Shown: positions 48,971 to 63,868, counted from the stretch's first letter. The stretch: 64,000 nt of DNA from an uncultured Nitrososphaerota archaeon (GCA_963718895.1 CAVRAG010000008.1:416001-480000); one strand, 5' to 3'. Translations and numbers: made by a program. The notes: generated from the letters alone by a model not told the origin.

Positions 48971-49480
48971 GGAGGCTCGGGAGCGCGGCCGAGGCTATAA
49001 TGACCGGATTGCAGTGTAGTAGCTAGCTCGAGAGATAGCTGAAAGTGGGCGAGCGGGAACGTAACTTAGTCTGCCCTCTGTTCGAGAGACCTTATCCAAT
49101 TTCCGTCGTTTTCGGGTAAGGTATGTCGGTCATTGCAACCGTTGACGTCGGCTATCATCACCAGTCAGGCCGGACCCAAGTCCACAACAACGTTCTGAAC
49201 CCCGAAAACCGGTTCTCTACCTCCATTTGTTCAAGCACGGTTTGTCGTTTCGCAATTCCTCCTTAAACGCGTCCGCCCGCTCTGTTGATGGATTCAGCCG
49301 GTCCCCCGTTCTTCCTTCCAGGATCGGACGCTATTCCCTGACTGAGGATCTATCCCCGCGGCGGCGCTCGTCTCCAACGGGCGGATAGTCAATAACCTCT
49401 GTAGTCCAACATGTGACTTGAAAATCAATCAGACCAGAGGTGAGAGTTCGACGGTGAACCCAGGAAAGCCAATCGCCCTC

Positions 49481-49921
49481 TCACGTTTCCAGCTTTTCTG
49501 CCATCGCAGCCAAGTAAGTCTGATTTTTCCGAAGAAAGTCCACCATCCGCTCTATCTTGTGAATTGTCATTGGGTGCAGGTAATGTTCGATTCCTTCAGC
49601 ATCTTCGTCCGCCACCCGTTTCTCCACGTCGATCATGGATAGAAACTCTGAGATTATTGCATGTCTTGAGATTACCGATTTTGCGATCTTCGCGCCCTCG
49701 TCCGTCAACCTGATGCTTCGGTAGGGCTCGTGCACCAGGTAATCCTTTGCGGCCAGTCTCCGCAGCATAATAGAGACCGTTGGGGGTCTGACTCGAAGCT
49801 TCTCTGCGATTTCTGCCGTGCTTGCATAGCCCTTTTCTTGGATCAGATGGTAGATTACCTCGAGGTAGTCTTCCAGCCTCGAATTCCCTCCTCGCTGCTC
49901 AGCCTGGTTAGCTCCCGCCAA
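49481..49921 (-). CDS. mntR: DtxR/MntR family metal-dependent regulator (no FeoA domain)
   Basis: LEDYLEVIY, wHTH, RH..I.EFL and DAEGIEH motifs. Confidence 0.92.
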   Translation of the reverse strand: MAGANQAEQRGGNSRLEDYLEVIYHLIQEKGYASTAEIAEKLRVRPPTVSIMLRRLAAKDYLVHEPYRSIRLTDEGAKIAKSVISRHAIISEFLSMIDVEKRVADEDAEGIEHYLHPMTIHKIERMVDFLRKNQTYLAAMAEKLET

Positions 49922-49978
49922 TTCATCCCTCGCTTGCAGAGAAGCAGGTAGCCGCGCATTAAAAGGGTTTTTGAAAAG

Positions 49979-50030
49979 TTAGGCGCACCTACAAAATGAT
50001 GAGTACTATAATCATGTTAGAGTCATCTAA
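49979..50030 (+). promoter_or_regulatory. Triple DtxR/MntR operator array between mntR and mntH2
   Basis: TTAGGCGCACCTAC (49979), GATGAGTACTATAA (49998) and TTAGAGTCATCTAA (50017); TATA TTTAAATA at 50032. Confidence 0.75.
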
Positions 50031-50065
50031 GTTTAAATAACTGATGTAACTCTCTCTCAAGAGCC

Positions 50066-51360
50066 ATGCGTGCGCCTTGGAGTCGGTCTCTGAAATCACC
50101 AGAGGAACTCGAGGCAGAGAAGGAGGAAAGGGTTCGCAACCACATTTCTCCGCGCGCCGTGCTCGTCTATCTCGGTCCCGCCCTGATTGTCAGCATGGCC
50201 TACATGGATCCGGGGAACTATGGGACAGACATCCAGAGCGGCGCTTCATTCGCGTACGACCTTCTGTGGGCGGTCTGGATGGCCAACCTGATGGCCATGG
50301 CGTTGCAGTACCTTTCCGGGAAGCTGGGAATTGCGACTGGGAAGGACCTCGCCCAGGCTAGGTCCGCGGATCCCTCAAGACGAGGAAGCTAATCATTCCC
50401 TATTGGCTGGCTGCAGAGGCAGCGGCGGCGGCGACGGACCTCGCCGAGTACCTGGGTACCGTCATCGCGCTCAACCTGCTCTTCGGGGTGCCCCTCCTGT
50501 ACGCAGCCATCTTCGGCGCGGGCGACGTGATTATCCTCCTGGCGCTGACGTCAAAACGCTTTCGGGTCATCGAATACTTCTTCATGCTCTTCGTTTCCAT
50601 GATAACCATAGGTTTTCTCTATCAGGTAATCCTGATAGGGCCGAACCTGTCTAACATCATGTACCACTCCGTTGCCGTGTCAATCAGCGGCAAGACCGTC
50701 CTGCTGGTGGTCGGGATAGTGGGCGCAACAGTGATGCCGCATGCGCTCTTCGTCCACTCCACGCTCACAAGGAACAAACTGACCACGGCGAGCATTGAGG
50801 AGAAGAGGAGGCACCGGAGGCTACACCTCAGGGAGGTCGTCGGTACCCTCACCATCGCCGGTCTCGTCAACGTCGCAATCCTCGTCTCGGCCGCGGCCGC
50901 TTTTCATGCCAACTACAGCGGTGTATCCACGATCAACCAGGCCTACGAAGTGATGGTGCCTCTGTACGGCTACCTTGCAGGTACCGTATTCGCACTGACG
51001 CTGCTCGCTTCGGGCCTCGCTTCTTCCACCACGGGCACGCTGGCGGGCATGGCCATGATGGATGGGCTGTTGGGGACTCATGTAAACAAGAACCTCCGTA
51101 GGATCGTGACGAGATTGATCAACGTCTTTCCCACCACGATCGCCGTCTTGATAGGGCTCAATCCTCTGTCACTGCTGATTTACAGCCAAGTGATTCTGAG
51201 CCTGATGATACCACTACCGATGATTCCTTTGATTATCTACACGAATAGTAGAAAGGTGATGGGCGAGTTCGTGAACAGGAAGATCACCACGATTCTTGGG
51301 ATTCTCTGTGCCGTCACCATCATCTCCCTGAACATCGCGCTGCTCTACAACGCGCTTTAG
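50066..51360 (+). CDS. mntH: Second Nramp transporter (frameshift ~50360)
   Basis: AYMDPGN and MPHALFVHS motifs; paralog of 47357-48688. Confidence 0.92.
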
Positions 51361-51690
51361 GGCGTTGATCGGGCAGCAGGTCACAGGTACCCTCAAGGCG
51401 CTGCTCCTATGGGGACGTCGGAAGCGGGTGGTAAGAGTGATCGAGTTCTTTCCCACCCGCGAAGACTATGCGAAGAAGTTCGGCACCTGACCTTTACGAG
51501 AAAACCTTCCAGGGTTCCCTGATGGGATTCCCACCTTCGCGCAGAACTCTCGAAAGCGAGGGTCCTTTCGCAGCTCTTCGAAGAATGGGAGGTATCTGAT
51601 CAGATAGTGCCAAGAGTGTGTCTCGGTCTGGTCCACTTGGACTCGGCGGTTCTGGCGACTGCCGATCGGTGCTTCAGGTTCGGACGGGTT

Positions 51691-52188
51691 CTAGGTCTTC
51701 ACCACTATTTCGCCTTGGTGGCTGGGGTGGTAGGAGCAGTAGTATGGGTAGACCCCAGGCTGAGTGAACGTGAAGGTGTACACTTGGTTATGGGACAAGT
51801 CTCCACCGGAGAATGTTCCGTTCACCGAGACCACATCGTGAACGATCGTATCCTGATTGACCCAGACCACAGTGTTGTTGACTCCAATCATGACCGTCAC
51901 GTTCCCGGGCTCGAACTGAGCGTAGGGATATCCCCACCCGTACGGTATGTAGACATAGGTCGCGTTGGGCGGAGGGACAGCCACAGAAGTCGTGGTCGTG
52001 CTGATTGAGGTAATGCTGCCATAGTTTGTGAAAGAGTACATCTGACTCGATATCGTCACCGTTCGTGAAGAGAGAGGATTGACGTAGACGAATGCGATCG
52101 TGGCGATGATTAGAATCAGAGCAACAAGAGGTCCTCCGTCGCGTTTGAGCGTTCGATTCCTTGTCTCGCGAGAGGTTTCCAAGTTCAC
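51691..52188 (-). CDS. Membrane-anchored cupredoxin with His at the axial position
   Basis: VWVNQDTIVHDV ... YCSYHPSHQG. Confidence 0.88.
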   Translation of the reverse strand: MNLETSRETRNRTLKRDGGPLVALILIIATIAFVYVNPLSSRTVTISSQMYSFTNYGSITSISTTTTSVAVPPPNATYVYIPYGWGYPYAQFEPGNVTVMIGVNNTVVWVNQDTIVHDVVSVNGTFSGGDLSHNQVYTFTFTQPGVYPYYCSYHPSHQGEIVVKT

Positions 52189-52191
52189 ATC

Positions 52192-52368
52192 TCACATTCC
52201 GATAGACTCGGTGTCCGTATTCCAGAAAGCGGTTTGATTCCGCATCGCTGCGTTGGGAGGTGTGGCTATTCCTCCGACTCCCGATCCTGCCTCGCCGCCG
52301 AGCGCGGAGAAGGATTTGTCTTTGCCTGGGCGAGCCAGATATCTAGTAAGGGAAGACAAGAGCTCCAA
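52192..52368 (-). CDS. Putative 58-aa leaderless small ORF
   Basis: TTG 25 nt below TTAAATAG; stop 3 nt before the cupredoxin start. Confidence 0.35.
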   Translation of the reverse strand: MELLSSLTRYLARPGKDKSFSALGGEAGSGVGGIATPPNAAMRNQTAFWNTDTESIGM

Positions 52369-52407
52369 TCACACTTCGGCGAGGCTGTTTGTCTATTTAA
52401 TCGGGAC

Positions 52408-52423
52408 GTTTACTTTTGTAATT
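52408..52423 (-). promoter_or_regulatory. TTAC-N4-GTAA site A
   Basis: GTTTACTTTTGTAATT, 9 nt upstream of the minus-strand TATA at 52400-52393. Confidence 0.75.
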
Positions 52424-52566
52424 CACGAAGCCCTGATGCAAGGTACACTGGCCAGTGATGCTTCGGGTACATGGGCGCTGCGCGATTCTCTTTGCTAATC
52501 TAACGGGGAAGTGAAACAACAGGATTGTGGTTGGACGAACTCATCGCGTATGCGTCGAGAGTGAAC

Positions 52567-53316
52567 TCAACTGTCCAGCGCTAAAGTGTGCGAGTGTTCT
52601 CTGAAGATTTCGATAAAACGCGGTATCAGTTCCGAGTTTCTTTCAATTGAGATAAGATACCGCGGGAGCCGCGATTCCTTGCCCTCCGTCGACGTACGCT
52701 CCATCATGAATGGCTCACCCCACACTGATAGAAGGCCCTCTTTGGATCTATCACCATTTGTGATTAACCCGAATGAGATATTTCCCAAGTCTTCTGCAAA
52801 GATAGGCTCCCCTAACTTCTCGCGCCCAGCATGATTCTCTAATTTTGGGGTGACAAACTTTTGCCAAAGGATTTTCTCAGAATTCCTCAGTACTATTCTG
52901 ATTCGAGTAGTTTTCGGATTAGATAATACGTCGCCCATGAAAGCATCAAAGAGAGTTTGAGATCTGAACATATCCACGCAAATGTTAAACCACCATAGTT
53001 CCCCCACGTTCTTTGCTGTGAATTGGCTGGTGAATGCAACGAGCTGATTTGAGGGGACTAACTTCAAGTCTGAGCTACCTACCGATACTTTGATAGCGCG
53101 AATGTCGTCGATCATCCCCAGTAGCGCTTCATGCTCCTTTCGTGCCTTTGCACCTTCAGCCGAACTTTCGAGCGCGAACACAGCAACTATCAGGAGCGTG
53201 AGTGAAATTATTTCCTGAATAGAAAGAACGCCTAGAGTTTCGAGAACTATGCCTACGACTGCAGCTATGACGAGAGCAATCCTATGCCATTCCAGATCCA
53301 TTCCGAGTCCTCTCAT
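52567..53316 (-). CDS. Two-TM membrane protein with a soluble C-terminal domain (low GC)
   Basis: Two N-terminal TMs then an alpha/beta domain; 249 aa. Confidence 0.7.
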   Translation of the reverse strand: MRGLGMDLEWHRIALVIAAVVGIVLETLGVLSIQEIISLTLLIVAVFALESSAEGAKARKEHEALLGMIDDIRAIKVSVGSSDLKLVPSNQLVAFTSQFTAKNVGELWWFNICVDMFRSQTLFDAFMGDVLSNPKTTRIRIVLRNSEKILWQKFVTPKLENHAGREKLGEPIFAEDLGNISFGLITNGDRSKEGLLSVWGEPFMMERTSTEGKESRLPRYLISIERNSELIPRFIEIFREHSHTLALDS

Positions 53317-53677
53317 CCGAATCCTTCGATAGTCGATTCTTGTGAGATATGTAAAACTACCGAAAGGTGTCTTCGATTTGCCTTGGGATCCACTGCATTC
53401 TAATTGGTTTTGAAATCCAAGAGATCGATTGTCATCAGATGCCTAGGATTTAGGTTCCTTCCCCCTCTGGTACTTCTTGTTAACTAGTTCAGGTGGGAAT
53501 TCTCTTTTAGCGTTTCGGTTCAGACCCATGGATAGCCTTGACAGGTAAGACAATGTAGAGATACTCCAACGCCTTGTCTACTTCCACTCCACCGCGGCGC
53601 TGTTTGACGTCATGATGAGGAATCCCCAAACGATTTGGGCCAATTCTTAAACGCACTATCAGAAACTAGGACAAGTA

Positions 53678-54172
53678 ATGAACTTGACCGAACTTCTGGA
53701 GGCGGAACATGCTTCTTTGCGCGTGTATTTCAGGCATCTTCGTTATCTGAATTCTGACTTTCTCTTTGAACTCGACGATTTCGTCACTAATTGCCATGCG
53801 AAAATCGAAGACGAAGTGGTCTTTCCGGAAATGAGGATGGCCCATGGGACCGAGGATAAGAATATTGAGAACATCACAAAGAGAATGGAAGAGGAGCACA
53901 AACTGCTTCAGATGCTCGGGAATAATCTGCGAACAATCGTCGCGGAAGGAAATGAGGAGCTTGACAAGAACAAGGTGCTGCTCTACGCGGATACCCTGGA
54001 ATCGCACAACTCAAGCGAAGAAACGCTTCTCTTCCCAAGTTGGGATAAGGTCAGTATTGAGAAGGAAAGTGAAGCGGCTTCTCGGGCTAGGGGAATCATC
54101 GACGGTTACGGGTTTGAACGTTATCTCAGGGTGACGGGGTTTTCACAGGAGTTCATGAACTTGCTGGAGTGA
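53678..54172 (+). CDS. Hemerythrin-domain protein
   Basis: EH...HAKIED..FP...EEH...HNSSEE.LFP. Confidence 0.88.
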   Translation: MNLTELLEAEHASLRVYFRHLRYLNSDFLFELDDFVTNCHAKIEDEVVFPEMRMAHGTEDKNIENITKRMEEEHKLLQMLGNNLRTIVAEGNEELDKNKVLLYADTLESHNSSEETLLFPSWDKVSIEKESEAASRARGIIDGYGFERYLRVTGFSQEFMNLLE

Positions 54173-54749
54173 CGTTCATTCGGAGATACCGCGTGGCTTG
54201 AGGACCCACGTCAGGCGGGCTTCATGGCGCCGTCCGGGGGCGCCGCACAATTCTGCCTCTTCGAACGGGGCTGGTGCAGGGCGAGGAAGCTCCCGACCAT
54301 GTGCGAGGCTCCTTTCATCGCGACAATCGGCGACAACACATCGACAGACGTCCAGCTCAAGACTCCCTACCTTCTCTTGGTGCCAAAGGCAGGCCGGGAG
54401 TGAAGAAACCAGGGACTTTGGCAACACCGCGCAAGCACTGCTGGCGCAACTCACCGGACCTTCGAAGGGCCAGTCCATAGAGGCGCCTAGGGTGGACGGA
54501 GTTGGCCCGGCGGAGCATCTCCTGCACGAACTCGTCTTTCTTTCCCCAATCCATCGAGGTCATCTGTGGCTGCTACGGCGTGGCTCGCTCCATACTTCAG
54601 GACACCCCCCGGGGCATTAACCCCGCCGAAGGTCGCTGCTTGTCAGCACCCATACGCGTGGGGCAAGATCTCATCGGCCCCACTCATTCTCGCGATTTCA
54701 GGCGTCTAATCCCAACGGCTAGAGAGAAGGAGGTCAGCCAGGGAAGGGG

Positions 54750-55352
54750 TCATAGCGCGTACCCTTTCTCTATCAGCAGGTCCCTGAATTCGTCCGATTC
54801 GGTGATGAATGGGTCAAGCGCAGCAAGAATGACTGCATAGACGAACTCCGTCGCCTCGTGGTTCCTCCTGCAAATCGGGCAGATCCTTTCCTCCCCCGCC
54901 TCGGGAAGATAGGAGCGGAGCTTGCTCCTCGACTTGAACTCTTCGAACAGGTCTGAGAGCTCCTTCAGCAACGGAGCCTTCAGCTTGTCCGTGAGGTCTT
55001 TCGTTATTCCCTCGTAGGCGAGGACGTTCATGAAAGGAACGTCTATCCTGTATTTTCCCCAAGTGGTCCTCTCGCACAGGTACCGCTTCTTCCTCTCCTT
55101 CGCTCGCCTCAGGTCACGAGGAAGGATAGAGACGAACTCTAAGCGCCGCAGTTCTTTGAGCGTAGAGTAGACCGCGGATGCTGGTAGTCTAAGCTTCTTC
55201 GCAATCTCGTCGGCCGAGGCACCCCCCGCGCCCGCGATTCTCACATAGTCGAGGATATTCCAGGTGCTCTCCTTCGAAAGGATATCGGCCTCCAGATAGG
55301 ACCGGACCGGGATGTGCGTGAGGTAGGTCTTCGAATTCTCTTTGGCTTCCAA
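54750..55352 (-). CDS. Winged-helix transcription regulator with a C-terminal CxxC-x3-H site
   Basis: ASADEIAKKLRLPASAVYSTLKEL HTH; CPICRRNH. Confidence 0.75.
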   Translation of the reverse strand: MEAKENSKTYLTHIPVRSYLEADILSKESTWNILDYVRIAGAGGASADEIAKKLRLPASAVYSTLKELRRLEFVSILPRDLRRAKERKKRYLCERTTWGKYRIDVPFMNVLAYEGITKDLTDKLKAPLLKELSDLFEEFKSRSKLRSYLPEAGEERICPICRRNHEATEFVYAVILAALDPFITESDEFRDLLIEKGYAL

Positions 55353-55455
55353 GTTGCTCAGAATCCTGAATTTCCAGTGATTTTAGTTTTTCGGAACCTA
55401 AGACGTATATCTGGTCGGCCCTGCAACTCGTTGTGTGATACTAGGGTGAGCGCAG

Positions 55456-55704
55456 TTGTCAATCGGCATTAGCACGCGTCAGGAAGCAGAGATTCTGGAC
55501 ATCTCGGGTCGGATCGTCAAGGATATCATGCTCGACAACCCGCTCGTCATTCCGGCCGAGGGGATGCTTTTCACTGCGGCAGAGCTAATGGATCGAAGGA
55601 ACTGCAATGCACTCCTTGTGGAGGAGCAGGGAAGAATCGTTGGAGTAATCACGAGGAGAGATATTGAGAAGGCATACCTGAACTGGTTGAAATCCCACTT
55701 TTAA
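55456..55704 (+). CDS. Single CBS-domain protein
   Basis: VKDIM...AAELM...LLV...IVGVITRRDI. Confidence 0.8.
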   Translation: MSIGISTRQEAEILDISGRIVKDIMLDNPLVIPAEGMLFTAAELMDRRNCNALLVEEQGRIVGVITRRDIEKAYLNWLKSHF

Positions 55705-55983
55705 TGAGCAGTAGTAACCAATCTACACGCTCGGGCCGGGCAGGATTGAAATCCTGGTGTATTCAAGGCTCGTCCGATCTGAGCAGAGAAATCAATGGAT
55801 GGGATAAGAGGAGAACAAGTCCGTCTCGGCGAGGGCTTGGTTCCCCCTAGTCACATGGGGTTGAATCGGGGAAGTCGTTCGTGAGGATACGGTCCAAGGG
55901 CTGTGGGGGACGTCTGAGGCAGCCTTAACTTCCTCCATCAAGAAGGACGTGATGAAAAGAGGTACCGGATTGGAGGGACCAAC

Positions 55984-56571
55984 ATGACGTACAAGAACCA
56001 ACCGTCGGAGGCATCGACGAGCAGCACCGAGGTGAGAGCGATAAGAATCCCGAAGAGCATGGGGGAGATTCTAGAGACGGAAGCTCACGCTCGTGAAGTC
56101 AGCGTCAATGCACTGATAACAGAGATACTGAAGAAGTTTGTCGAGTTCGACAGGCACACAAACAGGTTCGAGTACATCTCAATCAGCCGCGAGGCCTTCG
56201 AGATTATCGTGGGCAAACTGGATGAGGAGAGCGCATTGAAGGCTGGAACCGAGGTAGGCGAAAGGATGCCGAAGGAGATAACCCAGTTCTGGTTCAAGAC
56301 ACTGAACCTCGAGACATTCCTATCGTTCCTCTCCAACTTCTCCAAGTACGCCAAACTCGCTCGGTACGACATCAAGGTCGACGGGAGGACGTATGTCATC
56401 TCGCTTTACCACGCGATGGGAATCAAATGGTCAATTTTCCTGCGCGGCTATTTCGAGAAATCGATTCCTGCAATCCTGGGCGTGCAAGGAAAGTTTGAGG
56501 TATCCCGCGATATGCTACTACTGAGATTCACGCTTCCTGAGGGCGTAAACCACTCAGTCCCGCGGTTCTGA
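55984..56571 (+). CDS. Ribbon-helix-helix regulator with a C-terminal sensor-like domain (thaumarchaeal family)
   Basis: RAIRIP...LETEA..REVSVNALITEILKKFVEFD; H.MG.KWS motif. Confidence 0.7.
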   Translation: MTYKNQPSEASTSSTEVRAIRIPKSMGEILETEAHAREVSVNALITEILKKFVEFDRHTNRFEYISISREAFEIIVGKLDEESALKAGTEVGERMPKEITQFWFKTLNLETFLSFLSNFSKYAKLARYDIKVDGRTYVISLYHAMGIKWSIFLRGYFEKSIPAILGVQGKFEVSRDMLLLRFTLPEGVNHSVPRF

Positions 56572-56597
56572 GCAATAGTGAGACCGCGCTGTCGTCC

Positions 56598-57164
56598 TCA
56601 GTCGCCCCCTATGTTGCCGTGTCCACACCATCCAAACTCGTCCTGTCTGTTGTCACAAACGGGACATAGCTCGTCTAGGAACTTGACGTCAGCAGCTCGC
56701 TTGCCGAACCTTGCGAGGTGCGCGTCCACCAAATCTTCCACGCTCATGCTCCACCTGAAGCTGCTCTCTCCCTTCTCGAGCCGAATCATCGTTCCGACCA
56801 GGTAGGCGGCCGATTCTGACTTGGCTAGCAGGGGGGCGAGCCTTTCCTTGTACCAAGGCTCCAGTCCGGTCATATCCCCGGGGTTTTTGATCTCTTCAAG
56901 CGATGCTGCAGCTGAGGCCATCTGAGTAGTGAGGAGGTCTGCCATTGGAGAGCTTGCAATTCTCACGTAACTGGCAATCGCTTCGCAGTTCTTCAGGGCC
57001 GCTTCGGCGAGCCTGAGTCTTGTCGCGACCCGAACCGGCGCATCTGTCCGGTACCCGAGACAGTACTCGTGGAACGCTATCCCAATCTCAGACTTGGACC
57101 TCAGGACATCCTGTTCGAGCTCCTCGATCTGACCAAGTCGGCCCAATGTGTTCTCTCGCCTCAT
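56598..57164 (-). CDS. Hypothetical protein with a C-terminal Zn-finger-like tail
   Basis: CPVCDNRQDEFGWCGH; start overlaps the ferredoxin stop. Confidence 0.65.
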   Translation of the reverse strand: MRRENTLGRLGQIEELEQDVLRSKSEIGIAFHEYCLGYRTDAPVRVATRLRLAEAALKNCEAIASYVRIASSPMADLLTTQMASAAASLEEIKNPGDMTGLEPWYKERLAPLLAKSESAAYLVGTMIRLEKGESSFRWSMSVEDLVDAHLARFGKRAADVKFLDELCPVCDNRQDEFGWCGHGNIGGD

Positions 57165-57586
57165 GGTTGAGTTATCTTAATGCAGCTTGTGGGACAACTC
57201 ACCTCACAAGCCATGCAGAAGATGCAATCAGTTTCCCGGACGGGGTCAGACTTGTCGCAGCGATAGGCGACCCATTCGGCACTCCCCTGCGATACCTCCT
57301 TGTTCTTTCCAGTGCCTGCCTGACCGGGGTTGAGAGCCCACTCAAAGACGAAGACCGGGCACACGTCCATGCACACGCCGTCGGCTATGCAGTTCTCCCA
57401 GTCGACGCCAACGGCGGTGCCATGGATTCCACCGTTCGTCGGATACGCCTTGCCGTCACCGTCGTCCCTATGCATCCCGCCTGCTCGTATCTTGTGACCG
57501 AAGTGCTCGCCGCTGATGGGATACGCATCGGGTTTCTGCAAGAAACCAGGGTCTATTGGGTGGGTCTTGTAGTCCAGAGAGACCAA
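57161..57586 (-). CDS. zfx: Zinc-containing dicluster (7Fe) ferredoxin
   Basis: GEHFGH...GIHG Zn ligands, CIADGVC...CP and CIFCMAC...CP; leaderless TTG 25 nt below the TATA box. Confidence 0.9.
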   Translation of the reverse strand: MVSLDYKTHPIDPGFLQKPDAYPISGEHFGHKIRAGGMHRDDGDGKAYPTNGGIHGTAVGVDWENCIADGVCMDVCPVFVFEWALNPGQAGTGKNKEVSQGSAEWVAYRCDKSDPVRETDCIFCMACEVSCPTSCIKITQP

Positions 57587-57624
57587 TACAAAATCATCGC
57601 GTGTTAGCGATGGTTTAACGTTGT

Positions 57625-57640
57625 GATTACGTATGTATAC
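57625..57640 (-). promoter_or_regulatory. TTAC-N4-GTAA site B (one mismatch)
   Basis: GATTACGTATGTATAC, 8 nt upstream of the minus-strand TTAAACCA. Confidence 0.6.
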
Positions 57641-57670
57641 AGGTGTCGAGTTCATCCGTAAATAGCACGG

Positions 57671-58036
57671 ATGAGAGGATTGGTCATCCTGATCAAGATA
57701 GATAAGACCGTCTACGACCCTCCAGACCCATCTGACGGTAAGAGGATTCTCGTCATGCGGCTCTGGCCCCGAGGCATCGCAAAGAAGAAGATAGACGTCT
57801 GGATGAAAGACCTCGGGACCCCAAAGGAGGTCATCACCAAGTGGAAGGGACGAAAGATTACTTGGAAAACCTTCTCGACTGAATACGAGAAGAGTCTGAA
57901 GGGGAAGGAGGCGATTCTAAAAGAGCTGGCTGACGAGTCGCGCAAGAGTACGATCACCCTCCTTTGCACAGAAAAGGATGCGACTACCTGCCATCGATCT
58001 CTTCTCAAGGCTGCGATAGAGAAGCAGCTGCGATAA
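57671..58036 (+). CDS. DUF488 (YeaO-like) protein
   Basis: DGKRILVMRLWPRG...W.KDLG and CHR motifs. Confidence 0.88.
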   Translation: MRGLVILIKIDKTVYDPPDPSDGKRILVMRLWPRGIAKKKIDVWMKDLGTPKEVITKWKGRKITWKTFSTEYEKSLKGKEAILKELADESRKSTITLLCTEKDATTCHRSLLKAAIEKQLR

Positions 58037-58058
58037 TGGTCGCCGCAAGGCCGCAATC

Positions 58059-58074
58059 AATTACAGGAGTAAAC
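58059..58074 (+). promoter_or_regulatory. TTAC-N4-GTAA site C
   Basis: AATTACAGGAGTAAAC, 8 nt upstream of AATATATC (58081); TTG start at 58113. Confidence 0.8.
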
Positions 58075-58112
58075 ATACTCAATATATCGAAAGGACCTGA
58101 CGTTGCACTGGA

Positions 58113-58562
58113 TTGGTCAAGCGGCGCTACATCGGCATCATAGAGGTTGCTGTTGTCGTGTTCGTCATCGGCTCATTCTTCGCGTTCGCTAATCAGGCTC
58201 AACCCTCAACTGTTCACACTTCGACCAGTGTGGGAGAGATAATCGAGCCTGTGGGCGCTGGTCAGCCCCCCTCTAACTGGAGCTCTTCGACTGGTCCAAT
58301 CTACGCAGACACATCGTACTCACCAGATACCGTAGTAGTCGTGATAGGAGTCAACAACACGATTACTTGGGTGAACCAGGACTCGGCCCCGCATACTGTC
58401 ACCTTCACGGTTGTCCCTTCGGGGGTGACGGCGACGATAGATTCTGGGGAAATGGTGCACGGGGCCGCCTTCACCTATACCTTCCAGGTTCCGGGGACCT
58501 ACCTGTACGGCTGCACATACCATCCCTGGATGGGCGGCAAGGTCATAGTGAAGAACGCGTGA
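58113..58562 (+). CDS. Membrane-anchored plastocyanin-like cupredoxin (canonical type 1 site)
   Basis: NQDSAPHTVT ... CTYHPWMGG. Confidence 0.9.
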   Translation: MVKRRYIGIIEVAVVVFVIGSFFAFANQAQPSTVHTSTSVGEIIEPVGAGQPPSNWSSSTGPIYADTSYSPDTVVVVIGVNNTITWVNQDSAPHTVTFTVVPSGVTATIDSGEMVHGAAFTYTFQVPGTYLYGCTYHPWMGGKVIVKNA

Positions 58563-58563
58563 G

Positions 58564-59601
58564 ATGTGTCAAAGACCCGTGCGCAGGCCAACCTTCCCAT
58601 CGCTTGTCAAATCGCCCGTGCTTCTAGGAATCGTCGTCTTCGCTTTCTCGATTGGATTCCCCCCGTTAGATGATCTCACGACAATCTACCTCACTCTTCA
58701 CATGCTCCAGCACACGGTGATTGTGGTCGCGGGAATCCTGATCGGGTACTACCTGTTCAGACGAGGGATCTTCTCCCGCCTTCGGGGGACGAGGGCACCC
58801 TCGATGGCTGTAGTCGGGATGGTCGCGCTCGTCATCTTCTGGCACCTTCCAATCTCCTGGGATGCCGCTATCCTCAATCCGGTCATTCACGCTCTCGAGC
58901 ACTTCTCATTTCTTCTGGTCGGCGTGCTGATCGGCTCGGTAGTTCTGATGGCCTCTGATCGCTCGAAGATTGGGCTCCTCATATTGGGTGCGGTCGGGCA
59001 GTTCGGTTACGGGTGGGCGCTCGTGTCCAATGTTCACGTCTATCCGCTGTATTCGCTATCTCAGCAGGCAGACTTGGGCGTGGCGATGCTGCTGGCCGGT
59101 CCCTTCTATTCAGCGGGAGCGCTGTACCTGGTTGCGAGGAACCAGGGATGGTTTGAGGAGAACCGACCAGGGTCCGTCACAAGGCTAGATGTCGCTCACT
59201 CATCAAAGCGGCGAGGGCTCGGCGTGGTAAGCGCTTCTCTGACCATTCTTCTGATAGCTACTCTGGTCGTTTACTACGGTGCCACCGCGACGGCCATAGG
59301 TTCCTCTCCTCGACAAGGATTGCCGGGCACATCCACCGTCTACATAGTCGAGACCCCACTTTCCTGGGGCTATTCCCCGCAAGACCTCAAGGTTGTGATA
59401 GGTGTTAACAATACGGTGACCTGGATCAGCCACTCGATCTCTTACGACACAATCACCAGCACAGGCGGTAACTTCTCCTCTGGACCCATAGCGCCGGGGC
59501 AGACGTTCACCTTCACGTTCTCAACACCAGGCGAGTACGGATACAAGTGCATCTACCACCCCTGGATGACGGGGGGAGTGGACGTTCTCGCCGGCCCTTA
59601 A
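58564..59601 (+). CDS. Caa3-type CtaG (DUF1404) copper-insertion factor fused to a cupredoxin
   Basis: HMLQH, FWHLP and HALEH motifs; C-terminal CIYHPWMTG. Confidence 0.8.
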   Translation: MCQRPVRRPTFPSLVKSPVLLGIVVFAFSIGFPPLDDLTTIYLTLHMLQHTVIVVAGILIGYYLFRRGIFSRLRGTRAPSMAVVGMVALVIFWHLPISWDAAILNPVIHALEHFSFLLVGVLIGSVVLMASDRSKIGLLILGAVGQFGYGWALVSNVHVYPLYSLSQQADLGVAMLLAGPFYSAGALYLVARNQGWFEENRPGSVTRLDVAHSSKRRGLGVVSASLTILLIATLVVYYGATATAIGSSPRQGLPGTSTVYIVETPLSWGYSPQDLKVVIGVNNTVTWISHSISYDTITSTGGNFSSGPIAPGQTFTFTFSTPGEYGYKCIYHPWMTGGVDVLAGP

Positions 59602-59650
59602 GGCGGTTTTTGCCTACCTTCACCTCGGAAATCCAGAGCCTGTGCCGACC

Positions 59651-61231
59651 CTAACCGTCATGAAGCTCGGATGTGGTCTTCGAACCTACTTGAGCAGCCG
59701 ACACAACTGGAACTTTCGGGCTTGTCGCTGGATCCACACTCAGCGACCCTCCCATCAACCCCTGGAAGGTGCCTCGCCATGCAGGCCCAAGCCCCGCCAA
59801 GATCTCTAACGCAAGCCAACCGGCCCCGATACCCAGGAGAACTATGAACGGGAACGAGACGAGAGAGTAGCCCTGCCACTGTGGGAGCCACGCGCTGTAT
59901 CGCCTCGGTATGCTCACAGCGCCGGCGACGAAGAAGCTGAGCACCATGCCCGTGCCTCCTACCACGTAAAACCACACTGCTATTCTGCTCATGCGGGACT
60001 CCACGATGCCCCCTATGTCCTTCACAAGGTAGTACAGGTAACCCAGCGTGAATATGGCGCTGCCCAGTATCATGTATGTGTGGAAATGAGCGGGCACCCA
60101 CATCGTGTTGTGCATTATCTGGTTGATGGGGATGACAGAATCCAGAATCCCGCCTATGCCTCCGAATGCCCAGCCCCAGAGGCCGACGAAGAGCATCAGC
60201 GCGGGGACGGTCCACTTGATTCCGGCGCGGTAGACCAGCGTGAGCCCGCCAAGGATGGTCACCAGCAGCGAAGGCAGGACCGAAAGGTCCGTGACGGCCT
60301 GGCCCAGCAGATTAGCCGCGGCGGGATTCACAAAAGCCTCGTAGGTGTGGTGCAGATATGCCCCGAGCACGAAGAACGTGATTAAGTTCCAGGCAAGGGC
60401 CGTGGGCCACGAAAGGTGCCATTTTCTGCCGACCAGCAAGGGAAGCACGGCGTAGACGACTCCCGCCGCCAGGTAGATCTGCAGGTTCACGTAATCGTGG
60501 GCGAACGAGTAGAGCAGGTTGTACATGGCCAGCGAGTTGAGCCCAACCACTAGGCCTCCAGCCTGAGCGTAGATAGCCAGCACGTAGATGGCTCCCTCGA
60601 GCGCACATGCTATCCCGATCACTGAGACCGTTGGTGCCACTATGTCAGCTGGTGTGACCTCAGGTTCGGGTTTCACCTTTCCGCCAGAACGGAGGAACCT
60701 CCAAGCCAGGAGGTTTCGGAGGCCTCCGAACTGCTTCCTGGCGGACGTGAGTATGTGGACCGAGTAGATCAGAAGGCCCACAGCGATAGCGGCGTAGCCC
60801 GCCAAGAAGGCCAGGGCAGACCAGAGCGTCCATGCACCTTGGGAGGAGAGTGGCAGCGGGTAAAGAACGGTGTATCCTGCAGCGAATCCTCCGAAGACGA
60901 CAGCGATTATCACGAAACCATCCCCGAGGGTGTAAATCAGGACTGCGCCCCAGAGCGTCCTCGCGCTGAGCTTGACTCTCTTGCTTGAGACGGCGGCGTA
61001 GGCGCCCATGCACAGGAGGAGGATTGAGCTTGTCATTCCTGCACCGTGTAGGGTCATGACCTGATAGTACAGCTCAGAGTTTAGCGTCAGTAGGCCGCCC
61101 TGGTCGAGCCGCATCACAACGCCGAGGAGCCCCATGAACAGGAAGACCAGGACGCTGACGACCATCGAGAATAGCGCCACCCTTACCACTGGCCCGTTCG
61201 ATCCATTCAGACTCTCGGGTTTTGCTTCCAA
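59651..61231 (-). CDS. Heme-copper oxidoreductase subunit I, sNOR-type (putative NO reductase)
   Basis: MTLHG (low-spin heme His), FAHDYVNLQIY (HxxxN), AYLHH, WVPAHFHTY and IPRRY; TTG start at 61231. Confidence 0.85.
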   Translation of the reverse strand: MEAKPESLNGSNGPVVRVALFSMVVSVLVFLFMGLLGVVMRLDQGGLLTLNSELYYQVMTLHGAGMTSSILLLCMGAYAAVSSKRVKLSARTLWGAVLIYTLGDGFVIIAVVFGGFAAGYTVLYPLPLSSQGAWTLWSALAFLAGYAAIAVGLLIYSVHILTSARKQFGGLRNLLAWRFLRSGGKVKPEPEVTPADIVAPTVSVIGIACALEGAIYVLAIYAQAGGLVVGLNSLAMYNLLYSFAHDYVNLQIYLAAGVVYAVLPLLVGRKWHLSWPTALAWNLITFFVLGAYLHHTYEAFVNPAAANLLGQAVTDLSVLPSLLVTILGGLTLVYRAGIKWTVPALMLFVGLWGWAFGGIGGILDSVIPINQIMHNTMWVPAHFHTYMILGSAIFTLGYLYYLVKDIGGIVESRMSRIAVWFYVVGGTGMVLSFFVAGAVSIPRRYSAWLPQWQGYSLVSFPFIVLLGIGAGWLALEILAGLGPAWRGTFQGLMGGSLSVDPATSPKVPVVSAAQVGSKTTSELHDG

Positions 61232-61242
61232 ATCAGATCGCC

Positions 61243-61788
61243 CTACTGTGTAACCGTGAACGTGGTGATCATGAACGCGTGCCCTATGCCGCAATAGTCG
61301 AGGCATCGTACCGTGTAGGTACCAGTTTGATTGAAGTTCATGATGAGCTGATTCGTATAACCGGGGAGCACCTCCACTTGGCCGATGAGCACACCCTGGG
61401 CGTTGTAGACTGCGAAGTCGTGAACCACATCTTTGGAGGTGACATTGAACTCCACCGAAGTGTTCGCAGGTACCTGCCTGGTGCTCATCGTCCAGGACCA
61501 CTGTTGCCCAATCACGTTCACAACCTGCGTGGGCGGGCCGAGGGCCTCCGCCCTTTGAGGGGGATAGGGGAGAGAGACAAGGGTGAATATGAAAACGATT
61601 GCTGTCAGCGATATCAGGACGACTAGGACGTATCGTCGGTACGAACCCACCTTCTTGTAAGTGTTGTCGAAGGAATCCGTGGGCTTCTTCGCGCTCACCG
61701 CTATCCAGATGCAGAGCCCGCTCCAGATGGCGGCCATCACGGTGAATACGAGCAAGACCTCGATTTGGGGGGTCACCACAAATGTCAC
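61243..61788 (-). CDS. Heme-copper oxidoreductase subunit II (CuA)
   Basis: Two TMs, GQQWSW, DVVHDF and CLDYCGIGHAFM. Confidence 0.9.
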   Translation of the reverse strand: MTFVVTPQIEVLLVFTVMAAIWSGLCIWIAVSAKKPTDSFDNTYKKVGSYRRYVLVVLISLTAIVFIFTLVSLPYPPQRAEALGPPTQVVNVIGQQWSWTMSTRQVPANTSVEFNVTSKDVVHDFAVYNAQGVLIGQVEVLPGYTNQLIMNFNQTGTYTVRCLDYCGIGHAFMITTFTVTQ

Positions 61789-61888
61789 TTCACTCCCTCC
61801 TGTCTTGGAACTTCAGTCGAAGACAAGTGTCGCGTCTCCGGCGCAGGCCATCAATAGCGATTTTGAGTGCTGCGCATATATTGAGAAC

Positions 61889-61904
61889 GTTTACATCTGT
61901 AATT
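61889..61904 (-). promoter_or_regulatory. TTAC-N4-GTAA site D (weaker second copy at 61910-61921)
   Basis: GTTTACATCTGTAATT, 8 nt upstream of the minus-strand AATATATG. Confidence 0.8.
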
Positions 61905-62001
61905 GCGTGTTACCTGTGCAATCTCCACAATCACATTCGATGGAGTGCGGAATTGGGCATTATTCGAAAGTCCGTCCTCACGATGTGGCGGAACGGTGTA
62001 C

Positions 62002-62397
62002 TCAAGTGCCTGACGGTGAGATTCCTTTTGGTCGTCCTTTCGCCACGTCGGTCTGCTCTGCTCTTCGCACGACCACCAAGCTGATTAGTGCAGCAGTCGC
62101 GACTACCTCGCCGCCATCCACCTTTGTCCCGTAGGTCTTGAGGGAGAGGAGCGCTGGTGGATTGAGGGCCTCACCCGTCTCCAGCCTGAACTGGGAAAGG
62201 TGCGCCGGACAAACTATGGAGTCGTCCATGAGGAATCCATCCACAAGTTCGACATGCTCATGTGTGCAGATATTGGAGACAGCGTAGAACGCGGCTGTAT
62301 AGTTGACGACGAGGATGCTTTCACCCCAGATATTCACAGCGACCTTCTCGCCCGGAGACAAGTCTGAAACACTGCAGACTCTTGCTAACCTTGTCAT
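62002..62397 (-). CDS. Rieske [2Fe-2S] ferredoxin
   Basis: CTHE...CPAH ligands. Confidence 0.9.
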   Translation of the reverse strand: MTRLARVCSVSDLSPGEKVAVNIWGESILVVNYTAAFYAVSNICTHEHVELVDGFLMDDSIVCPAHLSQFRLETGEALNPPALLSLKTYGTKVDGGEVVATAALISLVVVRRAEQTDVAKGRPKGISPSGT

Positions 62398-62618
62398 CGC
62401 CCATCACTCCGGGCGGTCATCCGTTGCATCTCCTCCTGTGTTGGAAGTGAGGTGACGAAGCCGTTCCGTTCGGAAGAATTCACATAGACATCTAGCGGGA
62501 AGAAGAGCCTTCCCCTCATCGACCAGTAGTGGAAGGTGCAGAATTCAAGTGGGCTCTTACGGTATTTCTCTACAGCAACGCTGAAGCCGAATTTGGAACA
62601 CTCTGAGCATGGCTTCAC
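62394..62618 (-). CDS. Small CxxC...CxxH protein
   Basis: CSEC and CTFH; tightly packed between the hemerythrin and Rieske genes. Confidence 0.55.
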   Translation of the reverse strand: MKPCSECSKFGFSVAVEKYRKSPLEFCTFHYWSMRGRLFFPLDVYVNSSERNGFVTSLPTQEEMQRMTARSDGR

Positions 62619-62620
62619 GT

Positions 62621-63091
62621 CTACCGCGCTTTAATCCCGGTCTTGAGCTTGAGATACTTCCCGACCAGCAGAGCAGCGGGATAGAGGATCTCTTCCTCGT
62701 TCTTGGCATGAAGGGCGAGTTGCTCCGCGAAGCGAACGTATTCGGAACCGTCAGATCGCTCAGCCGCGACCTTAAGGGAATCAAGCGCTGTGATTATCTG
62801 CTTATGTTCCAGGAGCATCTGTGGAAGCTCTTTCTGGAGCCTGTCCGTCATTGAAATCACAGCCCGAATATCAGGCTCGGACTCGCCTTCCGCCAAAGCG
62901 GGCAGCAGAGCCAAGGGTGGTAAAGCGTACTCTTCCTCCTTGGCGAAGTGGGGGTGTAAGATCTTCGCCACATTCCTGGCTGCCTCCCCGACGTCGCCGG
63001 GAGCTCTTGAGGCCCTCCGAAGCTCCCGATGCAACTCTTCATGCTCCATCTCGACCGAGTCAGGTACCTTCCAAGATTTCTTGTGCGTCAT
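62621..63091 (-). CDS. Hemerythrin-like protein
   Basis: EH...HFAKEE...EH...HAKNEEEILYP. Confidence 0.88.
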   Translation of the reverse strand: MTHKKSWKVPDSVEMEHEELHRELRRASRAPGDVGEAARNVAKILHPHFAKEEEYALPPLALLPALAEGESEPDIRAVISMTDRLQKELPQMLLEHKQIITALDSLKVAAERSDGSEYVRFAEQLALHAKNEEEILYPAALLVGKYLKLKTGIKAR

Positions 63092-63558
63092 TCTGTCACT
63101 TTCGCTTGGGGTCCTTGTGCACTCTTCTTGTTAAGGGCATCAGCCTTCAGGGCAAGGGGGAAGGTTATCCTTTCCTCTTCGGCATGGTGCTTCCTGAGGT
63201 CGTTGACGAAGATCTGAATCTCTCTCCGGGCAACAGAATCAGGTAGGGTTGGCATGCTTGGTAGGGTGCTCTTGAAGAAACTAGCCAGCTCCCTGTGCCA
63301 ACGCATGATGCTGATGCTCGGCTGAGACTCCTCCTCTAGCTCCCACACTATTGTTCGCATCAGTCTTGCCTCTTCCTCGACTGCGTGCCGAAGCATGACC
63401 TCCCTGATGGAGCTTAGCAGGCTCTCGGCGACTTTCAGGTCGCCGTTCTTGCTCTCCTCGTAAATCTTGGCGAGTTTGGGTTCGATCTCCTTGTGTTCAT
63501 TCTCTAGCCTCTTCACTACCTTCTCGAGAGGCTCGTCGTAGTCCAGCGTGTAGCTCAT
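63088..63558 (-). CDS. Hemerythrin-like protein
   Basis: EH...HAVEEE...WH...HHAEEERITFP. Confidence 0.88.
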   Translation of the reverse strand: MSYTLDYDEPLEKVVKRLENEHKEIEPKLAKIYEESKNGDLKVAESLLSSIREVMLRHAVEEEARLMRTIVWELEEESQPSISIMRWHRELASFFKSTLPSMPTLPDSVARREIQIFVNDLRKHHAEEERITFPLALKADALNKKSAQGPQAKVTE

Positions 63559-63601
63559 ATCGCTCCTCGACTTTTCCCGAAGGCGTGCACATAAGATGTG
63601 T

Positions 63602-63617
63602 GATTACAAACGTAAAC
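63602..63617 (-). promoter_or_regulatory. TTAC-N4-GTAA site E
   Basis: GATTACAAACGTAAAC, 8 nt upstream of a weak minus-strand TATA (CTTATGTG) for the hemerythrin-Rieske operon. Confidence 0.75.
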
Positions 63618-63868
63618 ACTCACACAGGTTCTCTTGAATTATCTGGGAGATGATCAATTCTCAAGTGTCATGTCTAACCAAATCGCCACAGCAGATGCCA
63701 ATGACCTATTCATCATGAATGATTCAAATCCGTCCAACGGAAACATACTGGTCGAAGCTCACCGGTCCCACTAAGAATCAACTTGAATATTGCTCCGTTT
63801 GTCATTTCGAGTGCTTCATAGACTAATTCTGTCAAAACTCCCCAGAACCTTCGGTGGCTCTACGTACA

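Follow-up and report, generated by a model that had tools for sequence, protein, structure and literature searches.

The palindrome TTAC-N4-GTAA recurs at five promoters of a redox-gene island in an uncultured Nitrososphaerota archaeon, within a 64,000-nucleotide stretch of its contig C8 (GCA_963718895.1, here genome G000; C8:416001–480000; hereafter the window). From sequence evidence, this box is the predicted operator of the organism's copper-resistance (cop) system, into whose regulon the five island promoters would have been drawn. The most likely candidate binder is CopR, a protein joining an Lrp/AsnC-type helix-turn-helix (HTH) to a C-terminal TRASH metal-binding domain and encoded ~6 kb beyond the window end. 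We consider it probable that CopR binds the box and that copper induces the island's cupredoxins, CtaG protein, CuA-type nitric-oxide reductase (NOR)-like oxidase, ferredoxin, and hemerythrin/Rieske units. The genome comprises 3.13 Mb in 11 contigs (59% G+C, 80.5% complete); positions are those of the window unless a contig is named.

Architecture of the five island promoters

Exact copies of TTAC-N4-GTAA begin at 52410, 58061, 61891, and 63604—four in 64 kb, against 0.13 expected and a maximum of one in 100 shuffles—and a fifth site at 57627 (TTACGTATGTAT) departs from the pattern by a single mismatch. A sequence-only reading of the window had picked out these same five palindromes, and motif counts and shuffles confirm them. 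Across the whole genome the exact box occurs nine times, and non-coding DNA, as delimited by our own rough gene calls (~80% of the genome coding), shows no enrichment (5 seen, 5.2 expected). The island departs sharply from this background: Its 4,744 non-coding bases hold four of the genome's five non-coding copies, against 0.063 expected, a count reached in 0 of 20,000 shuffles. Background frequency, which the sequence-only reading had named as grounds for doubt, thus describes the genome as a whole but not the island.

A TATA matrix trained on non-island sequence (539 of 1,415 upstream regions; consensus TTAAATAG) finds its best score 8–9 nt past the box at all five sites, bearing out the spacing first proposed; the five scores are reached by 0.03–3.8% of 20,000 random non-coding places. 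Box A (TTACAAAAGTAA; 52410–52421, minus strand) is exact, and its TATA box (ATTAAATAG; 52393–52401, minus) follows 8–9 nt past it and 25 nt before TTG 52368, with the best score of the set (8.3; 0.03% of random places). Box B (ATACATACGTAA; 57627–57638, minus) carries its lone mismatch in the TATA-distal half-site and precedes by 8 nt a TATA-like element (TTAAACCA; 57611–57618, minus; score 3.9) lying 24 nt before TTG 57586. Box C (TTACAGGAGTAA; 58061–58072, plus) is exact, with TATA AATATATCG (58081–58089, plus; score 5.5) 24 nt before TTG 58113. Box D (TTACAGATGTAA; 61891–61902, minus) is likewise exact, with TATA AATATATGC (61874–61882, minus; score 3.1) 86 nt before GTG 61788, and exact box E (TTACGTTTGTAA; 63604–63615, minus) is followed by a weak TATA (CTTATGTGC; 63587–63595, minus; score 1.4, 3.8% of random places) 29 nt before ATG 63558.

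The TATA-to-start gap is therefore of leaderless type at A, B, and C (24–25 nt), slightly longer at E, and long only at D. Upstream regions across the genome have an A+T peak 25–37 nt before start codons, with the TATA consensus TTAAATA ~31 nt before starts, from which we take transcripts to be mostly leaderless and the reading of A+T-rich octamers as TATA boxes to be justified. In 83 typical promoters of the genome, an A-rich transcription factor B recognition element (BRE) stands 4–6 nt before TATA and no bases are preferred at the box position; the island promoters lack this usual A-rich BRE. These observations support the view that the boxes are one cis-element common to the five promoters, held at a constant position directly before BRE/TATA, which is the layout of archaeal activator sites.

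The four exact sites also fit the longer pattern ATTACA-N3-GTAAAC, whose asymmetric GTAAAC flank points toward TATA at A, C, and D and in the opposite direction at B and E. This 15-mer, sought in 200 other genomes of the order, occurs at the level of a reversed-pattern control, the pattern being too strict to catch cop boxes. Sites C and D, earlier described as near-identical over 30 nt, are 87% alike over that length and no further, and A and D are 76% alike over 29 nt. Since the likeness stops there, the repeated unit is a box-spacer-TATA module and not part of a larger duplication. Such likeness, together with the lack of genome-wide enrichment, could be taken to mean that the boxes have no regulatory role and arose by chance or were left behind when promoter modules were copied. 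We give that explanation next to no credence: No shuffle placed four boxes in the island's non-coding DNA, all five sites have a TATA at 8–9 nt, the likeness ends at the module edges, and a matrix built from other genomes' cop loci finds the island boxes (below). Short pieces identical to the window, from contigs of four DNA runs in three studies, span box C (57844–58225) and box D (61778–61983), at a depth too low for variants; among RNA runs, none was listed as containing this DNA.

The units behind the boxes are largely those proposed from sequence at the outset, and Pfam confirms their families (cupredoxins, ferredoxin, CtaG, COX2/COX1, hemerythrins, and Rieske). Unit A (51691–52368, minus) begins with a doubtful 58-codon open reading frame (ORF; 52192–52368), which comes before a membrane-anchored cupredoxin (51691–52188; Cupredoxin_1, 1.2e-8). 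Unit B (56598–57586, minus) encodes a ferredoxin with two Fer4 motifs (57161–57586; "zfx" in the sequence-only reading) and then a 188-aa protein with a C-terminal CxxC...CxH (56598–57164), which has no match in Pfam, NCBIfam, or the Atlas search. The ORF rule makes the ferredoxin gene too long (57161–57655); alignment with nine homologues sets its start at TTG 57586, which places box B upstream of the gene rather than inside it, in the same layout as A and C. Unit C (58113–59601, plus) comprises a cupredoxin (58113–58562) and a CtaG/DUF1404-type membrane domain fused to a cupredoxin (58564–59601), and a C-x2-H-x2-M pattern can be read near the C-termini of both proteins. Unit D (59651–61788, minus) encodes heme-copper oxidase subunit II (61243–61788; COX2) and subunit I (59651–61231; COX1), the latter in an ORF of 59651–61501 whose likely start is TTG 61231. 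Unit E (62002–63558, minus) contains two hemerythrin-domain genes (63088–63558 and 62621–63091), a 74-aa cysteine-bearing protein (62394–62618), and a Rieske protein (62002–62397). At least five of these target proteins are predicted copper proteins or copper-handling proteins.

Beside box D, on its TATA-distal side, lies a second box-like site with one mismatch (TTACCTGTGCAA; 61910–61921), 19 nt away start to start. The chance of a neighbour this close is estimated at ~2% for the set of five sites, and two regulator dimers may be able to bind the NOR promoter through the pair.

Conservation of the box at cop loci

A genome scan for boxes with at most two mismatches and a TATA at 7–9 nt, in which A, B, and D were hidden by the gene-call and distance filters, picked, besides C and E, TAACGTTCGTAA at C8:486629, 6.6 kb past the window end and 41 nt before a gene start. 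That gene is copA. Its promoter reads TAACGTTCGTAA, 9 nt, TTTAAGAC, 22 nt, ATG, and its product carries YHS, E1-E2_ATPase, and Hydrolase domains by Pfam (a P-type ATPase). It lies directly downstream of copR (C8:485957–486622; L137:6957–7622), whose 221-aa product combines HTH_24 (3e-14), HTH_AsnC-type (3e-13), AsnC_trans_reg (5e-9), and Arc_trans_TRASH (1.6e-9) domains; the chaperone is a 49-aa YHS protein (6e-17) encoded divergently upstream of copR. This locus, on the same contig as the island and 5.7–8.8 kb beyond the window end, hence out of view of the sequence-only reading, is by its predicted products a classical archaeal cop locus. The marks of a CopR-type regulator are found together in it: the Lrp/AsnC HTH and ligand domains, the C-terminal TRASH domain, and neighbouring genes for a P-type ATPase that handles copper and for a small metallochaperone. 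A further mark, a semi-palindrome just upstream of the BRE/TATA of induced genes and also at the copR promoter, is matched by comparison only.

A CopR query matched 45 of 97 family genomes at E ≤ 1e-15; the 30 loci retrieved represent seven genera by genus labels. A copA-like start follows copR in 23 of the 30, which share the gene order of G000, and the chaperone start was recognized by pattern in 16 of those 23. The copA promoter has a box with at most one mismatch 8–10 nt upstream of TATA (mostly TTTAAGAC) at 22 of the 23 loci (10 exact, 12 with one mismatch); the lone exception, L243, looks degenerate. All 23 also carry another box in the region separating copR from the divergent chaperone gene, at 8–10 nt from the chaperone-side TATA and 1–5 nt from the copR TATA (3–5 nt in 22 of 23). 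Beside the seven CopR-like genes without an adjacent copA there is no box (0/7). The consensus of 43 cop boxes is GGCT-TTAC-GTTC-GTAA-AGGC.

A scan of the genome and its relatives with a weight matrix had been suggested by the sequence-only reading, and a matrix trained at the cop loci of others (43 boxes from 22 relatives, G000 excluded) recovers most of the island set. Among all 6.25 million positions of G000 it places the genome's own two cop boxes first and, with 14 columns, ranks E 3, D 4, A 6, B 26, and C 161; with the 12-column core, E ranks 1. The 12 bases of box E are identical to the chaperone/copR box of five relatives. Site C is the weakest, its rank being that of the better orientation and its score lowered by a central AGGA. 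Other high hits in G000 are C8:297478, before a gluconate-dehydrogenase-subunit-like gene (box 5 nt from TATA), C4:101554, before a plain Lrp gene, and C7:704815, which is ambiguous; Pfam identifies no copper-related gene at these three places.

Outside the cop locus, none of the 21 exact boxes in four relatives has a TATA scoring at least 3 at 7–10 nt, which makes the combination of box and TATA specific to cop in these four genomes. Most of the 21 fall in long open frames and one in a tRNA-like stretch; an exact box of a fifth relative (G002:C32) is outside this count. The ferredoxin gene offers a comparison within one family: Among nine non-island homologues, the second copy in G000 included, no promoter has a box within 150 nt and all nine have a strong ATTTATAA-type TATA, unlike the island copy with its weak TATA and box. 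The motif, written as TTAC-N4-GTAA, TTACN4GTAA, TTACNNNNGTAA, or TTAC-4N-GTAA, had no match in the literature searched.

Two observations from relatives stand apart from these counts. The housekeeping ferredoxin copies in the genus (L217, L225–L232) share a highly conserved promoter, GGACAAATTTATAAC or AGATTTATAAT. In one relative (G007:C1:1578311–1578352; L266 612–653), a TATA (TTAAATTG) 22 nt upstream of an unknown gene's ATG has an exact box on either side (TTACTTGGGTAA and TTACCCTGGTAA), a layout that would be repressor-like if the sites are bound at all.

Regulator, signal, and direction of control

The sequence-only reading had described an undescribed activator regulon, responsive to nitric oxide (NO) or low O2 and run by one of two island-encoded proteins. 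The shared element and its activator layout stand; the novelty, the signal, and the regulators do not. The same box occurs at the copA and chaperone/copR promoters of 22–23 of 23 cop loci in seven genera, and the CopR family (Lrp-HTH plus TRASH) is a known one. A response to NO or low O2 finds no support, the linked sensor being a TRASH metal-binding domain and the targets being largely copper proteins. Among the 19 island ORFs (50488–63558), Pfam detects no CRP/FNR- or Rrf2-family protein, the rest of the genome not having been searched for these families; the only Pfam regulators there are a TrmB/MarR-like winged-HTH (wHTH) protein, a ribbon-helix-helix (RHH) protein with a weak HicB-like match, and CBS domains.

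It was this wHTH protein (54750–55352) or the RHH protein (55984–56571) that was proposed to bind the box and answer NO or low O2 in analogy to DNR, FNR, and NsrR. Both are island genes, four invariant residues of the wHTH family (C93, C158, C161, and H165) could sense metal or redox state, and the NOR-like enzyme and the hemerythrins are among the box targets. Yet 22 relatives from seven genera, all without the island, keep the box at their cop loci, and cop boxes are present in G007 (95% complete, one contig) and G006, neither of which gave a wHTH match at E ≤ 1e-20. Around 14 wHTH loci (20-kb neighbourhoods) and upstream of 20, no box within one mismatch of the pattern lies beside the regulator gene; no relative of the island RHH protein exceeds 44% identity in a search of 1.84 billion representatives, which disqualifies it as the binder of a site conserved across genera; and neither gene carries a box of its own. 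Regulation of the boxes by either protein is thus very improbable.

CopR is the likeliest binder because the site travels with copR-copA adjacency, has the known CopR layout, and is absent from CopR-like loci without copA. A different DNA-binding protein, such as an Lrp-family paralogue, might nonetheless recognize the box at both cop loci and island, in which case the signal would not be copper. What recommends this idea is a plain Lrp paralogue (C4:101622–102077) with TTACATTCGTCA (C4:101554–101565) 7 nt before its own TATA, and with a TTTACAT..GT half-site at its promoter in all 11 readable relatives (L286–L296; a 12th locus ended at the contig end). The full palindrome with at most one mismatch is kept in only one of those 11, however, versus 22/23 and 23/23 at cop loci, and the strict co-occurrence of the box with copR-copA adjacency (0/7 without copA) is hard to fit to such a protein. 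We judge this alternative quite improbable; the paralogue's half-site appears related to, but distinct from, the cop box.

With CopR as the binder, the mechanism we propose is as follows. CopR would sit on the box beside a weak BRE/TATA; binding of Cu(I) by the TRASH domain would allow it to help TBP/TFB load; and the island would be induced along with copA under plentiful copper. Island boxes occupy the copA-type position at all five promoters, and induction by copper, the likely outcome, would suit cupredoxins, an enzyme of CuA type, and an assembly factor resembling CtaG. A reason for including the ferredoxin, hemerythrin, and Rieske units is offered by Pyrococcus furiosus, whose copper-induced genes include ferredoxins and Fe-S assembly genes according to the excerpt of PMC7830388 considered here. 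The two spacings, 8–10 nt and 1–5 nt, would by analogy match the activated and auto-repressed promoters of the P. furiosus model, in which CopR activates copA and represses copR (same excerpt).

The boxes could instead be repressor sites, copper causing release or a change of shape of CopR so that induction is by derepression, with the same physiological outcome. Thermococcus onnurineus CopR is reported to repress copA from a promoter layout almost identical to that of P. furiosus (PMC7830388, in the part consulted), and by geometry a box-centred dimer would reach the BRE position 1–6 nt upstream of TATA. Set against this, the box lies 8–10 nt from TATA at island, copA, and chaperone promoters versus 1–5 nt at copR, which fits activation versus occlusion as described in vitro for P. 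furiosus in that excerpt; and island promoters without an A-rich BRE and mostly with a weak TATA fit a promoter needing help better than one needing silencing. From the spacing and the weak BRE/TATA we infer activation rather than derepression, and consider repression by CopR unlikely.

Several points weigh against copper induction through CopR. The centre of the box is even (4 nt), whereas Lrp-family sites are usually odd-centred. Both cop boxes of the genome depart from the pattern by one mismatch, unlike the exact boxes at four island sites; the cop matrix gives site C a poor score (at best rank 161); and at A, C, and D the four central bases are opposite in sense to those of the cop boxes relative to TATA. 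At the position where the five nearest orthologues start on a leaderless GTG, 24 nt after TATA, the copR gene itself has CTG (C8:485996; L137 6996), and the in-frame ATG 39 nt upstream of that CTG lies inside the box, ahead of the predicted transcription start site (TSS). This strain may therefore make little CopR, or the CTG may be a wrong base call. To these are added the plain Lrp paralogue with a related half-site at its own promoter, a NOR-like operon in the sole close relative fetched that lacks the box (below), the difference between the box consensus and the P. furiosus CopR motif TTNNCAWWWTGNNAA, and the reported repression by T. onnurineus CopR (PMC7830388, same excerpt).

The two island regulators may serve other sites. 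One such site is a perfect palindrome, CCCAAA-CGA-TTTGGG (53624–53638), 8 nt upstream of the TATA-like TTAAACGC (53647–53654) of a hemerythrin gene (53678–54172); it holds the same position as the cop box with a different sequence. The wHTH fold is generically MarR/ArsR-like, with no clear match for the C-terminal part, and the family occurs across Nitrososphaerales, including a second copy in G000 (C4:285888–286466, 52% identity). As a candidate binder the protein was rejected, its loci sharing only a conserved core promoter of CGAAAAACTTAAAA type and its orthologues occurring in genomes without extra boxes. The RHH protein, with a ~130-aa C-terminal domain lacking a Pfam model, belongs to a large, fast-diverging family (14 copies in G000 at 18–30% identity; 819 representative clusters at E ≤ 0.001). 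It too was rejected: No palindrome is shared upstream of the G000 paralogues, and two one-mismatch boxes nearby look like chance. An NCBIfam row below threshold that names it a Shiga toxin B subunit (E 0.077; 13 bits, where the cut-off is 203) can be dismissed as noise.

Island origin and relation to known systems

The enzyme behind box D (59651–61788) is probably an acquired NOR-like enzyme, judging from its residues and relatives. The best solved relatives of subunit I are ba3 oxidases; in alignment, its AHDYVN takes the place of GHPIVY in the Thermus thermophilus ba3 oxidase, so that the cross-link tyrosine needed for O2 reduction is absent. Subunit II keeps an H..CxxxCxxxHxxM pattern, which we take to be the CuA ligand set. 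NORs lack the cross-linked active-site tyrosine, as subunit I does, and sNORs are rare in Archaea, both according to the parts consulted of a NOR family survey (PMC11214002).

Among 401 genomes of the order, a NOR-like subunit I is found only in G000 itself, with no relative at E ≤ 1e-40 in the 400 others; 40 relatives reach 25–29% identity at best, and a single-sequence scan of genome contigs returned nothing. The closest relatives are metagenomic (67–72% identity), and the next, at most 48% identical, include source-named Gemmatimonadaceae, Anaerolineaceae, and Stellaceae. Homologues at 41–48% are mostly Gemmatimonadota, and those at 30–36% include metagenome-assembled genomes of Nitrosomonadales and other Proteobacteria. 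Alignment-based contig scans gave one close locus, L025 (63% identity), together with 80 genome loci, almost all of them bacterial, whose identity does not exceed 47%. No meaningful box occurs at those 80, and the NOR-like operon of L025 has none even at two mismatches. Conservation of the box upstream of NOR orthologues, which the sequence-only reading had set as a check, is therefore not seen at the one close locus available.

The island as a whole is probably a strain-specific, acquired region. Homologues of one island protein carry the source names Nitrososphaerales or Nitrosocosmicus. Synteny with the closest species, G010, covers only an Nramp segment (49443–51361) left of the island, which means that no clean insertion site can be defined. 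Within the island, a 2-kb stretch (52000–54000) has 47% G+C against 55–64% around it and encodes a 249-aa membrane protein without a family match (52567–53316); it may be a separate insertion. Three stretches of 65–115 nt (49040–49153, 51419–51484, and 63704–63778) have many matches at 80–89% identity in several genus genomes and in G000 and may be small repeated elements near the island edges. No tRNA or Rfam element was found at the edges, the three stretches included, and the 1 kb to the right of box E (63617–64634) holds no convincing gene.

What these observations may amount to biologically is that a soil Nitrososphaerales archaeon has wired a strain-specific, probably acquired respiratory island into its copper sensor, such that NO reduction and its electron carriers are made only when copper is available; we hold this predicted arrangement to be an evenly balanced proposition. 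If it is true, no transcriptional control of an NO reductase would have been predicted earlier in this archaeal class, and a detoxification regulator would have become a switch that ties cuproenzymes to copper availability. Besides oxygen and N-oxides, copper supply would then be predicted to gate the putative NO reductase and its blue-copper partners, with a bearing on N2O/NO turnover in soils poor or rich in copper. The analysis provides a concrete predicted CopR operator (TTAC-N4-GTAA, 8–10 nt upstream of TATA) for an uncultured soil archaeal family, together with a candidate example of regulatory capture, in which five promoters of an island unshared by sampled relatives carry a host regulator's site at one spacing. 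Experiments following the first reading would have been directed to the wrong proteins.

Among known systems with related promoter organization, bacterial FNR/DNR/NnrR and NsrR bind palindromic operators before NO-reductase and accessory genes. The island departs from them in having archaeal TATA/BRE promoters and, as linked sensor, a metal-binding TRASH domain. In Archaea, the nearest parallel to the first proposal is the haloarchaeal semi-palindrome CGAA-N4-TTCG of denitrification promoters, studied with NarO in Haloferax volcanii (PMC10062603, in the portion drawn on here). The likeness is one of form: a 4-N4-4 palindrome common to NO reductase and copper enzyme promoters, whose mutation lowers activity, a sign of positive action (same portion). 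Its sequence is different, it lies 66–79 nt from ATG, and it answers anoxia and N-oxides, with 83 promoter regions in H. mediterranei; according to that portion of the source the H. mediterranei regulator is unknown, whereas the box described here is tied to a copper sensor locus. Closer to this organism, the motifs given in the consulted part of a Nitrososphaera viennensis copper study differ from TTAC-N4-GTAA, and cop regulation is there called an open question (PMC7785015).

The closest counterpart is CopR of P. furiosus (PF0739; Lrp-HTH plus TRASH), for which the excerpt of PMC7830388 describes a semi-palindrome directly upstream of BRE at eight of nine copper-induced promoters with mapped TSS. 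Both systems have the same regulator domains, the linkage to copA, a TT...AA site upstream of BRE/TATA, and a site at the copR promoter; and, as far as the excerpt describes it, the P. furiosus regulon extends beyond export to ferredoxins and iron/Fe-S proteins, like the range of island targets. The operators differ in length and inner bases: The Thermococcales motif, TTNNCAWWWTGNNAA, spans 15 bp, while TTAC-N4-GTAA spans 12 bp with an even centre. For a regulator from a different archaeal lineage, a lineage-specific operator is to be expected. Gene order differs as well, copR and copA being divergent in P. furiosus and in tandem here, with a divergent YHS chaperone, and the additional targets here are copper enzymes in a strain-specific island, known from sequence alone. 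A second likeness is to CopR/CopT/CopA of Saccharolobus solfataricus and the VNG1179C-type system of Halobacterium, which regulate copA and a chaperone as summarized in that excerpt; it consists in a TRASH-domain regulator acting positively on both genes in response to copper. By its defining features, the predicted system is an archaeal CopR copper regulon with a lineage-specific operator and an unusual set of targets.

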